From Mustelus asterias (Eukaryota), in NCBI RefSeq assembly GCF_964213995.1, contig NC_135804.1:112468001-112532000 (forward strand): DNA of 64,000 nt, read 5' to 3'. Shown here in pieces: positions 1-58,639 of this stretch. The position numbers and the translations under genes were made by a program. Within the stretch, counting starts at the first letter, position 1; every line of letters starts with the position of its first letter. The notes below the pieces were generated by a model that was given only the letters and a program-made list of their open reading frames with translations, was not told the origin of the DNA and did not search any database.

Positions 1-936
1 AAGGTGTAACTGGGGTGATCAGTAAGTTTGCGGATGACACGAAAATGGCTGGACTTGCAGATAGTGAGGAACATTGTCAGAGGCTACAGAAGGATATAGA
101 TAGGCTGGAAATTTGGGCAAAGAAATGGCAGATGGAGTTCAATCCAGATAAATGCGAAGTGATGCATTTTGGTAGAACTAACGTAGGGGGGAGCTATACG
201 ATAAATGGCAGAACCATAAAGGGTGTAGATACGCAGAGGGATCTGGGTGTGCAAGTCCACAGATCCTTGAAGGTGACGTCACAGGTGGAGAAGGTAGTGA
301 ATAAGGCATATGGCATGCTTGCCTTTATAGGACGGGGCATAGAGTATAAAAGTTGGGGTCTGATGTTGCAGTTGTATAGAACGTTGGTTCGGCCGCATTT
401 GGAATACTGCGTCCAGTTCTGGTCGCCACACTACCAGAAGGACGTGGAGGCTTTAGAGAGAGTGCAGAGGAGGTTTACCAGGATGTTGCCTGGTATGGAG
501 GGGCTTAGTTATGAGGAGAGATTGGGTAAACTGGGGTTGTTCTCACTGGAAAGACGGAGGATGAGGGGTGACCTAATAGAGGTGTATAAAATTATGAAAG
601 GCATAGATAGGGTGAACAGTAGGAAGCTTTTTCCCAGATCGGTGGTTACGCTCACGAGGGGTCATAGGTTCAAGGTGAGGGCGGGGGAGGTTTAACACGG
701 ATATCAGAAGGACGTATTTTATACAGAGGGTGGTGGGGGCCTGGAATGCGCTGCCAGGCAAGGTGGTGGAGGCGGACACACTGGGAACGTTTAAGACTTA
801 TCTAGATAGCCACATGAACGGAGTGGGAATGGAGGGATACAAAAGAATGGTCTAGTTTGGACCAGGAAGTGGTGCGGGTTTGGAGGGCTGAAGGGCCTGT
901 TCCTGTGCTGTATTGTTCTTTGTTCTTTGTTCTTTG
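1..936 (+). mobile_element. CR1/HER1-type LINE, 3' part (RT C-terminus, 3' UTR, (TTCTTTG)n tail)
   Basis: ORF 15..695 has KFADDTK, WQMEFNPDKCEVMHFG and RPHLEYCVQFWSP motifs. Frameshift near 680-695, then a CR1 3' hairpin and a TTCTTTG tandem tail. Confidence 0.95.
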
Positions 937-5010: not shown

Positions 5011-5068
5011 ACAGTGTGAAGAACCGGCTCCTTCATCCCTCACAATCCATCCATCTGTCTTTACGCAG

Positions 5069-5681
5069 GAGGGGCAGCAGGTTATGGGGAATGGGAGCAG
5101 GTTGGAGGATAGGGAGTGGGAGAGGCAGCAGGTTGGAGGGATGGGAGTTGGAGAGGCAGCAGGCTGGAGGGATGTGGAGTGGGAAAGGCAGCAGGCTGGA
5201 GGGATGTGGAGTGGGAAAGGCAGCAGGTTGGAGGGATGGGGAGTGGGAGAGGCAGCGGCTGAAGGGACGGGGAGTGGGAGAGGTATCTGGTTGGAGGGAT
5301 GGGAGTGGGAGATGCAGCAGGTTGAGGGATGGGGAGTGGGAGAGGCAGCAGGCTGGAGGGATGGGGAGTGGGAGAGGCAGGAGGCTGGAGGGATGGAGAG
5401 TGGGAGAGGCAGCGGCTGAAGGGACGGGGAGTGGGAGAGGCAGCAGGCTGTAGGGATGGGGAGTGGGAGAGGCAGCAGGTGGGAGGGACGGGGAGTGGGA
5501 GATGCAGCAGGTGGGAGGGATGGGGAGTGGGAGATGCAGCAGGTTGGAGGGATGGGGAGTGGGAGAGGTATCTGGTTGGAGGGATGGGGAGTGGGAGAGT
5601 CAGCAGGCTGGAGAGACGGGGAGTGGGAGAGGCAGGAGGCTGGAGGGATGTGGAGTCGGAGGTATCAGGATGGAGGGATGG
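5069..5681 (+). repeat. Purine-rich ~31-bp minisatellite
   Basis: About 20 imperfect copies of GGGAGTGGGAGAGGCAGCAGG(T/C)TGGAGGGATG. It produces the spurious overlapping ORFs at 4860-5794. Confidence 0.95.
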
Positions 5682-5699
5682 TGAGCAGGGATGTAGAAA

Positions 5700-30140: not shown

Positions 30141-30613
30141 GGTAAGAGTTTTAACAACACCAGGTTAAAGTCCAACAGGTTTATTTGGTAGCAAATACCA
30201 TTTGCTTTCGGAGCACTGCTCCTTCGTCAGATGGAGTAGAAATCCACTCCATCTGATGAAGGAGCAGCGCTCCAAAAGCTAATGGTAGTTGCTACCAAAT
30301 AAACCTGTTGGAGTAGAAATCCACTCCATCTGATGAAGGAGCAGCGCTCCAAAAGCTAATGGTAGTTGCTACCAAATAAACCTGTTGGAGTAGAAATCCA
30401 CTCCATCTGATGAAGGAGCAGCGCTCCAAAAGCTAATGGTAGTTGCTACCAAATAAACCTGTTGGAGTAGAAATCCACTCCATCTGATGAAGGAGCAGCG
30501 CTCCAAAAGCTAATGGTAGTTGCTACCAAATAAACCTGTTGGACTTTAACCTGGTGTTGTTAAAACTCTTACTGTGTTCACCCCAGTTCACCCCAACGCC
30601 GGCATCTCCACAT
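30141..30613. mobile_element. Palindromic Penelope-derived mini-element with 13-bp TSD
   Basis: TSD CATTTTCAAAGCC at 30128-30140 and 30614-30626; inverted arms GTAAGAGTTTTAACAACACCAGGTTAAAGTCCAACAGGTTTATTTGGTAGCAA. Confidence 0.9.
30235..30542 (+). repeat. Four identical 77-bp tandem units, each with a hammerhead-like core
   Basis: Units start at 30235, 30312, 30389 and 30466; each contains CCAT CTGATGA A GGAGC AGC GCTCC AAAA GCTA ATGG. Confidence 0.95.
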
Positions 30614-36596: not shown

Positions 36597-38828
36597 GCTG
36601 AGATTTTCCACTCCCATTCGTGTCGGGCAGGTTTGGGGATGGGCGCGGAAAATATTGCCAAAAGTCCAAAGTTGCATTTTATGTCAGTGTGAAAGCTTTC
36701 CGCGATCCTCCCCAGCCCCTATCAGTGGCGGGCCACATTTCCTGATGTTTAATGTCAGAAAACCTATAGTAATATATTAGCATATTATTATCGGCTCGAT
36801 ATGCTGGAATCATCCCCGCACCAACCTTCCCATCAAAACATCCATCCACAGGGGCACAATATCGGAACAGCACGGAGAGCAACTGGCTATAAAAGGCATA
36901 CACCTGGCAAGACCCCCTCTGAGGAGAGGTCAGAGATGAGTGTAACACTCAGGGAGCGGTTCCGTGTAATCAGAGGGTTAACTTGGTGGGGAGGGGGGGT
37001 AACCACGGTCTGATTTGGGGGTACTGGGGTTTGACTCGGGGGTACCAGGGTCTGACTTGGGCATACCAGTGTTTGACTTGGTGGGGCGGGGGGTCATAGA
37101 AAGAAAGTATCATAGAAACCCTACAGTACAGAAAGAGACCATTCGGCCCATCGAGTCTGCACCGACCACAATCCCACCCAGACCCTACCCCCATATCCCT
37201 ACATATTTTACCCACTAATCCCTCTAATCTACACATCCCAGGACACTAAGGGCAATGGGGGCTTAGTTGGGTCAGACCAAGGGTTTGAGTCCAGAGTACT
37301 AGGAGTTTGACTCCAGCTTACCAGGGTGTGACTGCAATGATTTCAGCGCTGAAGCGATGGCGGGGCGGGCGAATCAGAGGCTGCCCCAGGAGCGATATGA
37401 TATGGAACCCGTGCATGAGCATTTTGTTTGACTAAGTGCCACATTATATGGTGGGAAAAGCCGCCACTGCCATCAGTGATCTCAAAAGAACAACAAAGAA
37501 CAAAGAACAATACAGCACAGGAACAGGCCCTTCGGCCCTCCAAGCCCGCGCCGCTCCCCGGTCCAGGATTGAATCCTGAATCCAGGATCCCCGCCCAATT
37601 TTCCAGCCTATCTACATCCTAATATCCTATCCACCGAGCTGTCCCTCACAGCTACGATGCTTTGTTCATCACAACCTATTAACTCACCCCCACCCCCCCA
37701 TTCCAGACCATGTGATCTCCAGGGAGAGGCGAAAACCCAGAGTGAAAACCCCAGGGCCAATATGGGGAGAAAAAAAAATCTGGGAAATTCCTCTCCGACC
37801 CCCTGTGGCGATCGAAACGAGTCCAGGAGATCACACTGGCCCTGATCAGAAAATGCTTCCCAACCCTATTCATTTCCACTTCTGCTTTACGAACACCATC
37901 TGAATTCCCTGCCCCCGAGACAGGTTCCCAACTATCCGCAGTCTCGCTCTGTACTGGCACCAGCAAGATGATCATAGAATGAAGCCTTGAAACGAGAAAC
38001 AAAGAACAATTAGCCCGCGCCGCTCCCTGGTCCAAACTAGACCACTCTTTTGTATCCCTCCATTCCCACTCCGTTCATATAGCTGTCTAGATAAGTCTTA
38101 AACGTTCCCAGTGTGTCCGCCTCCACCACCTTGCCCGGCAACACATTCCAGGCCCCCACGACCCTCTGTGTAAAATATGTCCTTCTGATATCTGTGTTAA
38201 ACCTCCCCCCCTTCACCTTGAACCTATGACCCCTCGTGAACGTCACCACCGACCCGGGGAAAAGCTTCCCACCGTTCACCCTATCTATGCCTTTCATAAT
38301 TTTATACACCTCTATTAAGTCTCCCCTCATCCTCCGTCTTTCCAAGGAGAACAACCCCAGTTTCCTCAATCTCTCCTCATAACCAAGCCCCTCCATACCA
38401 GGCAACATCCTGGTAAACCTCCTCTGTACTCTCTCCAAAGCCTCCACGTCCTTCTGGTAGTGTGGCGACCAGAACTGGACGCAGTATTCCAAATGCGGCC
38501 GAACCAACGTTCTATACATCTGCAACATCAGACCCCAACTTTTATACTCTATGCCCCGTCCTATAAAGGCAAGCATGCCATATGCCTTCTTCACCACCTT
38601 CTCCACCTGTGACGTCACCTTCAAAGATCTGTGGACTTGCACACCCAGGTCCCTCTGCGTCTCTACACCCTTTATGGTTCTTCCATTTATCGTGTAGCTC
38701 CTCCCTACATTATTCCCACCAAAATGCATCACTTCGCATTCATCAGGATTGAACTCCATCTGCCATTTCTTTGCCCAAATTTCCAGCCTATCTCAACGCC
38801 ATTGCTGATCTCCGAGAAATTCCCACCC
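36597..38828. mobile_element. Harbinger-like element with internal ~21-bp repeats, interrupted by an HE1 tail and a CR1
   Basis: Ends GCTGAGATTTTCC / GAGAAATTCCCACCC; repeats GGGGGTACCAGGGTCTGACTT at ~36995-37080 and 37270-37333; HE1 tail at 37095-37256. Confidence 0.5.
37486..38793 (-). mobile_element. Young 5'-truncated CR1 with intact ORF2 C-terminus and extended 3' UTR
   Basis: Uninterrupted ORF 38037..38759, near-identical to 15..695; ATCTCAA on both flanks; extra ~470 bp in the 3' UTR. Confidence 0.95.
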
Positions 38829-56125: not shown

Positions 56126-56742
56126 ACATCTCACAACACCAGGTTAAAGTCCAACAGTTTTATTTGGTGGCACGAGCGCTTTCGGAGCGCTGCTCCATCA
56201 TCAGGTGAGTGGAGAGTTGGGTTCACAAACAGAGCATACATAGATACAGACTTAATTGCAAGATAATGGTTGGAAAGCGAGTTTTAATAGGTGATCAAGT
56301 CTTTACAGGTACAGACAATGCGAGTGGAGAGAGGGATAATCACAGGTTAAAGAGGTGTGAATTGTCTCAAGCCAGGACAGTTAGTTGGATTTTGCAAGCC
56401 CAAGCCAAATGGTGGGGGTTACACGTCGTGTGACATGAACATGAACATGCAGAATCGCCGAGCAGAAGCTGATAGCCAGGTTCTGCACACATGAGGATGG
56501 CCTCAACTTGGGGTTCATGTCACACTACGTGTAACCCCTACCTTGTTTCTGCGGCTTTGACTCATCTTTCATTCCCTCACCCTGCAGTATAAATATCTCC
56601 CACTTGCTATGCCTTTTAGCTTTGACAAAGGGCATCAGGACTCGAAATGTCAGCTCTTTTCTCTTTTTATAGATACTGAGATTTTCCAGCATTTTTTCTC
56701 TTTTGGTTTCAGATTCCAGCATCCGCAGTCATTTGCTTTTAT
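56126..56742. mobile_element. Penelope-like insertion: inverted terminal part plus GIY-YIG C-terminus and 3' end
   Basis: RIAEQKLIARFCTHEDGLN remnant at ~56450-56534; hammerhead motifs at 56171-56207 (-) and 56618-56655 (+). Confidence 0.85.
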
Positions 56743-57244
56743 GCTGAGTAGGGAGTTCGGGGAAGGGTGGGAAGGAGGTGTTATTTTCTTCTACTCTTCT
56801 CCAGCCTCCAGTATTTGATTTTCATTTTGGTGCAGCAGAAGCAGCAGGTAAATCACAGAGCAGGCGAGGTGCTGAATGTGGAAGTTTCTGGACATCAGCG
56901 ATCCAGGGCAAACACACCTGCAATAAGTGTGGCTGCAGGAACTTCAGTTCAATGAGGTTGAGCTGGATGCTGAGCTGCAACCACTGCAGCACATCAGGGT
57001 TGGGCAACATTACACGGACACTTTATTCCAAAAGGCAGTCACACGCCTTAGGATGAGGTTTTCTGAGTTGGTTAGTGGTCAGTGGCAGGACAATATGACT
57101 GCAAGTGAGGCCAGTAAGGGGATCCAGACGGCAGGAGTACAGGAGTGGTCAGTCTTTGGAATTGTCCAACAGGTTTTAGCTTGCTTGGATGAGAATGGAG
57201 GCTGCAGGATCGATGAGCTAATTGGCCATGGCACCATACAGGAA

Positions 57245-57725
57245 TGATGTGGAGATGCCGTGCTTGGGTGATGTTCGGGGCTGTCTTGTGAGTGCGGCTA
57301 ATTCGGGTAAGCGTTCTCCAAGGCGGCCTTCGCGACACACGATGGCGCAGAGTCGCTGAGCAGAAACTGATAGCCAAGTTCTGCACACACGAGGACGGCC
57401 TCAACTGGGATATTGGGTTCATGTCCCACTATTTGTAACCCCCACAGAGTTTCACTGGCTGTCTTGTCTGGAGACAATACACATCTTTTTAGCCTGTCTT
57501 GATGCTCTCTCCACTCATGTTGTTTTGTTTCTTAAAGACTTGATTAGTTGTAAGTATTCGCATTCCAACCATTATTCATGTAAATTGAGTTTGTGTCGTT
57601 ATATGCTCTGTTTGTGAACAGAATTCCCACTCACCTGAAGAAGGGGCTGGCAGCTCCGAAAGCTTGTGTGGCTTTTGCTACCAAATAAACCTGTTGGACT
57701 TTAACCTGGTGTTGTTAAACTTCTT
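57245..57725 (+). mobile_element. Penelope-like insertion with 12-bp TSD
   Basis: TSD ACCATACAGGAA at 57233-57244 and 57726-57737; endonuclease tail RRVAEQKLIAKFCTHEDGLNWDIGFMSHYL*. Confidence 0.92.
57632..57668 (+). ncRNA. Minimal type I hammerhead ribozyme motif with intact core
   Basis: CAC CTGAAGA A GGGGCT GGC AGCTCC GAAA GCTT GTG: stem I CAC/GTG, 6-bp stem II, palindromic AAGCTT stem III. Confidence 0.7.
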
Positions 57726-58343
57726 ACCATACAGGAAGCCATTCAAGCTGGGGGAGTAACAAGGAATGTAGTGGTAACAGGGAACAGTGCAGTCAGAGGG
57801 ATTGACACTGTTCTGTGCAGCAGAGTCCAAACAGCCATGTTGCTTACCTGATACCAGAGTTCAGGACATCCGCTCAGGGCTGGAGAGGAACATGCGGTGG
57901 GAGGGAGAGGACCCAACCATCATGTTTATGTACATAGCAATGACATGGGCAGGACAAAGGACATTTACATTGTCAATATGAAGAGCTTGGTACCAAATTT
58001 AGCAGAATTTCAAAGGTCATAATTTCTTGGTTATTGCCTGAGCCACATGCAGATTGGTATAGGCCCTATCAGATTATGGAAATGAATGCATGCCTCAAAG
58101 ACTGGTTTGGGAGAAGTGGGTTCCAGTTCATGGGCACTGGCACACCAGTACTGAGGAAGGTGGAGCTGTACCGCTGGGACAGTGCCCACCTGAACTGTCC
58201 TGGGACTGGTGTTCTCACGAGCCACATAAATAGAGAACTGGATCAATTTTAAAACTTTTGGAAGATGTGGTAAATCAAACATAAAGACCAGGCAAAAGAG
58301 AAAGGTATTTATACAAGAAATGAAAAACAGGCCGTAACAGCAA

Positions 58344-58560
58344 TGATGTGGAGGTGCTGGTGTTGTACTGGGGTAAGCACAGTAAGAAGTCTCACAACAC
58401 CAGGTTAAAGTCCAACAGGTTTGATAGGTCCAACAGGATTATTTGGAATCACAAGCTTTCGGAGTGCTGCTCCACTCATCTGAGGAAGGAGCAGCGCTCC
58501 AAAAGCTCGTGATTCCAACTAAACCTGTTGGACTTTAACCTGGTGTTGAGAGACTCCTTA
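58344..58560. mobile_element. Palindromic Penelope-derived mini-element
   Basis: Same architecture as 30141; degenerate 12-bp TSD CCGTAACAGCAA / CCGAAACAGGAA. Confidence 0.85.
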
Positions 58561-58639
58561 CCGAAACAGGAAAGGATAGAGAATAGAAATCTAACAGTAA
58601 ACCAACCGAGGAGACTAGAGGTTATAAAAATAATAAAAT

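Follow-up and report, generated by a model that had tools for sequence, protein, structure and literature searches.

Why does a CR1 element in the genome of the shark Mustelus asterias carry several hundred extra base pairs between two short direct repeats of its 3′ UTR, where did this sequence come from, and what could it do there? The element lies in a window of 64,000 nucleotides (the whole stretch analysed; NC_135804.1, positions 112,468,001 to 112,532,000), in a genome of 3.68 Gb with many CR1-type repeats. The initial annotation saw in it an optional, excisable RNA module of about 470 bp.

The carrier is a 5′-truncated CR1 copy on the minus strand (37490–38793; all features below are on the same strand), 97.7–99.7% identical to 29 other genomic copies and 0.2% from the consensus of its young, module-bearing subfamily. 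It is classed as a CR1 LINE from its CR1-type ORF2 end and its microsatellite tail without poly(A), the likeness to consensus being judged by eye. The C-terminal part of ORF2 is open (38037–38792, stop codon 38039–38037); its translation resembles by eye the CR1 ORF2 ends in the published excerpts consulted, and a Pfam search with this piece gave no match. Reading onward in the sense direction, ORF2 is followed by the upstream 23-bp repeat (38012–38034), which is the same as the sole, ancestral repeat of module-free subfamilies and whose variant is present in 99 of 100 module-free junctions among the matches listed; an 18-nt junction filler (37994–38011) resembling, by eye, the element's own tail repeat; a captured host piece of 364 bp (37630–37993); an ORF2-derived filler (37564–37620); the downstream repeat, with one derived base (37543–37565); and the normal CR1 3′ tail (37490–37542), which ends in (TTGTTCT)n-type repeats and has no poly(A) run. 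Neither AATAAA nor ATTAAA occurs anywhere in the element (37490–38793). As annotated initially, the repeats are 22/23 identical and offset by 469 bp, the module itself being 446 bp long. The 5′ truncation of this copy (window 38773–38793) falls inside the ORF2 stretch duplicated in the module, a single case that is possibly due to chance. Elsewhere in the window there are a 77-bp perfect tandem repeat with self-complementary arms (30142–30572), related to 56129–58572, and a degenerate tandem repeat array (5068–5685).

The module is not unique to this locus: its core 18-mer has 10,007 exact matches in the genome (reversed control, 0), and the module-free junction has 9,483. The copy at window positions 1–936 has a single repeat, decayed (19/23 by eye), and no module, as first described; it had been taken for a near-identical sister, yet its identity is only 94% over 781 bp, and it differs by 6.2% from the module-bearing consensus, hence it is assigned to an older CR1 subfamily. 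In the 483 bp upstream of the module, one haplotype is common to 51 module-bearing copies and absent from 35 module-free copies, which are 2.7–14% away from it. A tree of 660 bp, with two unclassified rows omitted and the module-bearing sample biased towards copies resembling the window copy, recovers all 45 module-bearing copies as a single clade that arises from within 58 module-free copies (SH support 0.80); here, tips are shortest in the module-bearing copies (median 0.33% vs. 1.62%). One young diagnostic base occurs at 92 module-free junctions, and the 30 of these that were typed have at most 3/7 young states; excised copies are bounded at about 9/92 (95%), compared with some 10,000 carriers. 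Taken together, the single clade, the shared haplotype, and the lack of the young haplotype in all 30 typed candidates indicate that the module is a one-time gain, fixed in the youngest CR1 subfamily; the 23-bp repeats are the scar of its capture. An optional cassette excised through these repeats, as initially proposed, is almost certainly wrong and largely refuted by the typed candidates, since the module-free relatives, abundant as they are, belong to older subfamilies, even if direct repeats do make deletion possible.

A SINE inserted with a 23-bp TSD was considered and rejected: the best 30 module copies are all at the same CR1 site, the non-CR1 copies lie in one shared host unit, and the Rfam search of the module (E up to 10) yielded three chance matches, the best with E 0.29. 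The same search found no small RNA of the kind that had been suggested as cargo. SINE domains as described in excerpts of PMC7245038 and PMC5499810, compared by description, do not match the domain either. Module-bearing CR1 copies are also seen in contigs of three other organisms. A sub-lineage (L109, L110, L154, L169; 4/70 aligned copies) has lost about 110 nt at the 5′ side of the module and retains the 125-nt domain described below. At 17.01–17.09 Mb of G000:C2 (L175–L180), tandem units of about 11.7 kb each contain a module-bearing CR1 copy.

The larger part of the module matches a multi-copy host repeat family. The alignment with the host consensus begins at module nt 19, i.e., 3′ of the 18-nt filler, which is absent from the host donor; module nt 19–382 (37630–37993) match at 88% a locus (L185) that has no CR1 ORF, 23-bp repeat, or young tail. 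The family comprises at least 22 copies with 91–95% identity over 580–680 bp, partly in tandem units about 11–17 kb apart, on several contigs. The host copies retain the old CR1 tail further than the module does, hence they are not derived from the module; in a tree of the shared piece, host copies and LINE copies are sister groups, so that the exact donor copy lies outside the sample. In all 22 host copies, AATAAA follows the domain at a distance of about 145–165 nt, with a GU-rich tract behind it. The host unit as a whole (L409–L430; G000 C2, C3, C9, C14, C16, C23, and C1761) is about 11–17 kb long and multi-copy; its copies have non-coding segments in common, together with the conserved domain and the poly(A) signal. 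Among the segments listed, the four shared non-LINE ones have no shared open frame, and three candidate frames in the unit gave no Pfam match; possibly, judging from these features, the unit represents a lncRNA family. None of the contigs from other organisms extends over the unique parts of the host unit, a result that speaks neither for nor against its transcription.

The remaining parts of the module are pieces of CR1 itself. The copy of ORF2 sequence noticed in the initial annotation is confirmed, with 26/28 positions matching ORF2 at window 91–118; in the filler, the ORF2 register is kept for about 55 nt, the middle 19 nt being replaced by a local inverted copy (hairpin 37571–37590). The filler joins the second repeat via a 2-nt overlap, and contig X5, from another organism, has a variant of this junction closer to ORF2. 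From this patchwork we infer template switching during copying or repair as a fitting mode of capture.

The core of the captured piece appears to be older still, as it contains a remnant of a CR1 3′ UTR (37630–37842) that aligns over 196 positions, at 80.6% identity, with the consensus of 46 old copies (module nt 170–382); old copies have a median identity of 74% to this consensus. A search pattern favouring non-young copies matched the genome 41 times (control, 0); of 30 loci fetched, 27 are non-young, mostly decayed copies of one family with a few chance matches. In three of the old loci (L201, L353, L355), a distant ORF2 end (29–32% identity) lies directly upstream of the domain on the same strand, and many old copies end in a tail of their own, about 100 nt further 3′; this arrangement makes the domain a native part of the 3′ UTR in an old CR1 lineage that has since decayed. 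Old-lineage copies are rare: a covariance-model scan of 600 kb of evenly spaced sequence found only two young copies. In PMC4316615, the Xenopus CR1-2_XT consensus has the 3′ arm of the domain between ORF2 and a similar tail. This is the only trace among the published CR1 consensuses in the excerpted supplement of that paper, whose alignment is trimmed at the ORF2/UTR boundary; the domain motif is absent from the excerpted supplement of PMC13343379.

The conserved RNA domain (125 nt, 37711–37835) is predicted to form a three-way junction. The minimum-energy fold, which coincides with the centroid, contains each of the four stems and the U9 tract that the initial annotation described. Stem P1 pairs 37823–37835 with 37711–37723; P2 is a hairpin (37796–37814); and P3, an ENE-like arm (37724–37795), is composed, from its base, of a lower stem (37790–37795/37724–37729), a lower loop with AAUUU (37785–37789) facing UUUUCG (37730–37735), a 6-bp middle stem (37779–37784/37736–37741), an upper U-rich loop (37768–37778/37742–37748), a top stem (37763–37767/37749–37753), and, between the strands of the latter, a 9-nt apical loop with a conserved AUUGGC. 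The lower and middle stems are 100% paired in 22 shark sequences. The lower loop is closed by G-C and C-G in 22/22 sequences (one U-G), the upper loop by A-U and C-G. The 5′ U-run of the lower loop, preceded by a conserved AA, has three U in the young family and four in old and bird-like copies, against 4–6 on the facing strand; the U-run of the upper loop has about 3–9 against 4–5, and is frequently interrupted in host copies. The folding energy is moderate, with z = −3.6 in a window of 132 nt, the ends of which were picked after seeing the fold, −1.8 in 171 nt, and −1.3 in 571 nt. The opposite strand also folds (z = −3.4), hence energy alone does not set the strand. The stems are nearly invariant within the shark copies, and covariation there does not exceed chance (145/500 shuffles).

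Conservation follows the pairing. The window copy differs from the host consensus at 0/122 domain positions and 30/238 flank positions (p 3e-6). Among the 22 host paralogs, variable columns constitute 10/74 paired, 20/48 unpaired domain, 102/238 upstream, and 68/220 downstream positions; the paired columns are less variable than the flank (10/74 vs. 170/458, p 3e-5) and than the unpaired domain (p 6e-4), these p values being approximate, as the paralogs are related. Pairwise differences show the same order for paired positions (2.1%) against the unpaired domain (7.5%), upstream (8.0%), and downstream (6.4%) sequence. Within the LINE lineage the trend is weaker: diagnostic sites fall at 0/74 paired and 14/321 flank positions (p 0.08, hand count), and in contigs of other organisms at 0/74 and 20/321 (p 0.02, weak, among the matches listed). 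These comparisons indicate purifying selection on the 125-nt core; of the structured module of some 470 bp initially described, it is only this core (37711–37835) that is conserved.

The joint history, with a single gain, a host donor, an old CR1 origin, and a selected structure, we consider highly probable. The domain was carried in an old CR1 lineage, between the ORF2 stop and the element's own tail; one remnant sits in a host unit, now with at least 22 paralogs, about 155 nt before AATAAA and a GU-rich tract, where its paired positions stayed conserved; a polymerase copying a module-free CR1 would then have switched templates, from the CR1 tail to an ORF2 piece, the host piece, and CR1 again, with 23 bp duplicated; and the product founded the youngest subfamily, of about 10,000 copies, with the module kept. 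The passage of the domain from an old LINE through a host repeat into a young LINE clearly exemplifies how a mobile element recovers a piece of RNA from its host.

Homologues outside the shark were sought with a variant motif in metagenomes, yielding 28 loci, four of vertebrate type (L088, L089, L096, L107), which we take to be bird-like from an amniote-type CR1 tail nearby; the CR1 near these loci stops before the domain. A covariance model built from shark sequences only scores exactly these four of the 28 loci (E 0.001–0.005, rough values); the other 24, not matched by the model, were set aside as unrelated, and the MALAT1 locus is not matched either. Sequence-only comparison of shark and bird-like copies by nhmmer is not significant (E 0.06–4), hence only the covariance model separates the bird-like loci. 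Folded independently, the bird-like copies have the same three-way junction in all four, with GAUCG of P2 and the apical AUUGGC loop kept between the two groups. Double changes between shark and bird-like copies number two in the lower stem, three in the middle stem, and up to five in P1, counted between two lineages in an alignment fitted to the model, with the lower-stem changes imposed by the search pattern; five more counted in the top stem were discounted for poor alignment. Instead of two U-rich loops, the bird-like copies have a single one (4/4 first copies); at the two loci whose downstream sequence extends for 1.2 kb, no AATAAA follows closely. At these four loci the domain lies outside CR1, in tandem copies that are spaced by about 173 nt and increasingly decayed (3–4 in L089 and L096), and in a multi-copy context, possibly, by this arrangement, a second host recruitment. 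The variant GGAAGG/CCTTCC has no match in the Mustelus asterias genome. In viral contigs, 97 pattern matches were read as chance, the apical motif occurring in 0/80 loci fetched. The initial annotation had pointed to a similar motif in reptile and amphibian CR1 3′ UTRs, which would be covariation: a tetrapod-type homologue with compensatory changes exists, and so does the Xenopus arm; within the shark copies the near-invariant stems offer no such signal. Its broader proposal, that LINEs carry a structured RNA domain acting in cis, is supported by the many copies, the modelled conserved structure, and the homologues.

What such a domain might do is suggested by its P3 arm. ENEs are described in excerpts of PMC13541005, PMC12501189, and PMC7583470 as U-rich internal loops that lie close to the 3′ end and are flanked by closing G-C pairs, and a plant retrotransposon ENE, according to the excerpt of PMC12501189, raises RNA level and mobility. 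The predicted arm shows this arrangement, and in 22/22 host copies AATAAA lies downstream. By analogy, the core may be an ENE-like, poly(A)-binding stability element, for which we see an even chance; a poly(A) tail from a site outside the element would fold into the U-rich loops as U-A-U triples, slowing decay of the intron-less RNA and thereby raising its level and, hence, the output of copies. Several points speak against a poly(A) clamp: neither a poly(A) signal nor an A-tract occurs in the LINE, the lower loop has only a short U-run on its 5′ strand, no close signal follows the domain at the bird-like loci, and module-free subfamilies reached about 9,500 copies although they lack the domain. 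The combined account, i.e., a one-time capture from a host repeat, likely by template switching, with a core that is likely an ENE-like clamp in the predicted fold, appears to us evenly balanced as well.

The best surviving alternative is a protein-binding element for export, RNP assembly, or translation, with the U-runs as part of the protein site. It would account for the conservation, in shark and bird-like copies, of P1, P2 with its GAUCG, the apical AUUGGC, and the junction, which are not ENE features in the descriptions available, and for the short 5′ U-run and the lack of a poly(A) signal in the LINE. What fits a clamp instead is that the U-runs face each other between G-C pairs, that a lone G precedes the lower stem, as it does in MALAT1, and that the domain stands before AATAAA in all host copies; the two roles can coexist, and, overall, we regard protein binding as unlikely, though with an appreciable share of the probability. 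Less probable, and distinctly so, is that the domain is functional in host RNAs and in the old CR1 and rides in the young LINE as a neutral passenger. The p of 0.08 within the LINE, the little time since capture (stem 1.4%), and the thousands of copies reached by module-free subfamilies agree with this; however, paired positions remain unsubstituted in LINE sub-subfamilies and in contigs of other organisms while the flanks changed, and the deletion variant spares the domain.

A processing signal, self-cleaving or nuclease-cut, that defines the 3′ end of the RNA would suit a compact conserved junction close to that end, and ribozymes occur in other non-LTR elements. Yet no Rfam family matches, and a cut here would part ORF2 from the tail needed for reverse transcription, as stated in the excerpt of PMC4176376. 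We hold this reading very improbable. A DNA-level enhancer is scarcely plausible: the arm holds what we take to be a kappaB-like 10-mer and, on the other strand, a CCAAT box, both in the most conserved stretch, but conservation tracks base pairing, not these words.

Among the above, the ENE-like clamp remains the reading we carry forward. If true, it makes the ending and protection of CR1 RNA testable, and the sister subfamilies, about 3% apart, provide a natural comparison with and without the module. A wider scenario is possible, but we doubt it more than the clamp itself: CR1 elements of jawed vertebrates would carry an ancient triple-helix clamp, domesticated independently by hosts (shark repeats, bird-like tandems), and a shark LINE lacking it would have taken it back and so become the dominant young family.

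In the excerpt of PMC7583470, the listed ENEs are in viral RNAs, MALAT1/MEN-beta, and plant, fungal, slime-mould, and stickleback retroviral elements, with no vertebrate LINEs; full-text searches, whose scope excluded four primary ENE papers and Repbase/Dfam, turned up neither a CR1 element with an ENE nor a description of the present domain. With the MALAT1/MEN-beta triple helix, in the genome's own copy, the domain shares the 3′ strand GG-U-run-G-CC, a point of ENE likeness, but differs in having no encoded A-rich tract, tRNA-like element, or C/G interruption. A triple helix of this type was rejected as a candidate, the longest A-run downstream of the domain within the element being 4 and Rfam giving no match for the tRNA-like element; RF01684 matches at one other place only. 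The genome search revealed a single MALAT1-type 3′ end (L360; G000:C113:673144-673200, minus), with a mascRNA match of 62.6 bits and a U-rich loop and A-rich tract just upstream.

According to excerpts of PMC4176376 and PMC4316615, CR1 elements terminate in a microsatellite, and a stem-loop in the tail serves for priming. This stem-loop of stringent LINEs (CR1, L2) is likewise a structured cis element of the 3′ UTR, but it is separate from the domain, about 170 nt further 3′, and module-free CR1 elements, which have no domain, still spread. The ENE of KSHV PAN, as far as described in the excerpts, shares with the domain the order stem, U-rich internal loop, stem, and a short bulge on the 3′ strand, and lies upstream of the poly(A) site, as do the host copies; it forms five U-A-U triples, compared with a lower-loop 5′ U-run here of 3–4 nt, preceded by AA. 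The dENE of plant and fungal transposons (e.g., rice TWIFB1) and the ENE of Arabidopsis Copia93/Evade, as excerpted from PMC12501189, PMC7583470, and PMC13541005, share with it the 3′ UTR of an intron-less transposon RNA and the G-C closing pairs. Of the adenosine triad and 3′-end pocket of the dENE, the domain shows only the conserved AA before the U-run. Different from the dENE, the shark domain belongs to a vertebrate non-LTR element, one that lacks its own poly(A) signal, and stands on a conserved three-way junction. As described in the excerpts, the dENE has two U-rich loops parted by a short duplex; the shark copies have likewise two loops, parted by a 6-bp duplex, and the bird-like copies one.
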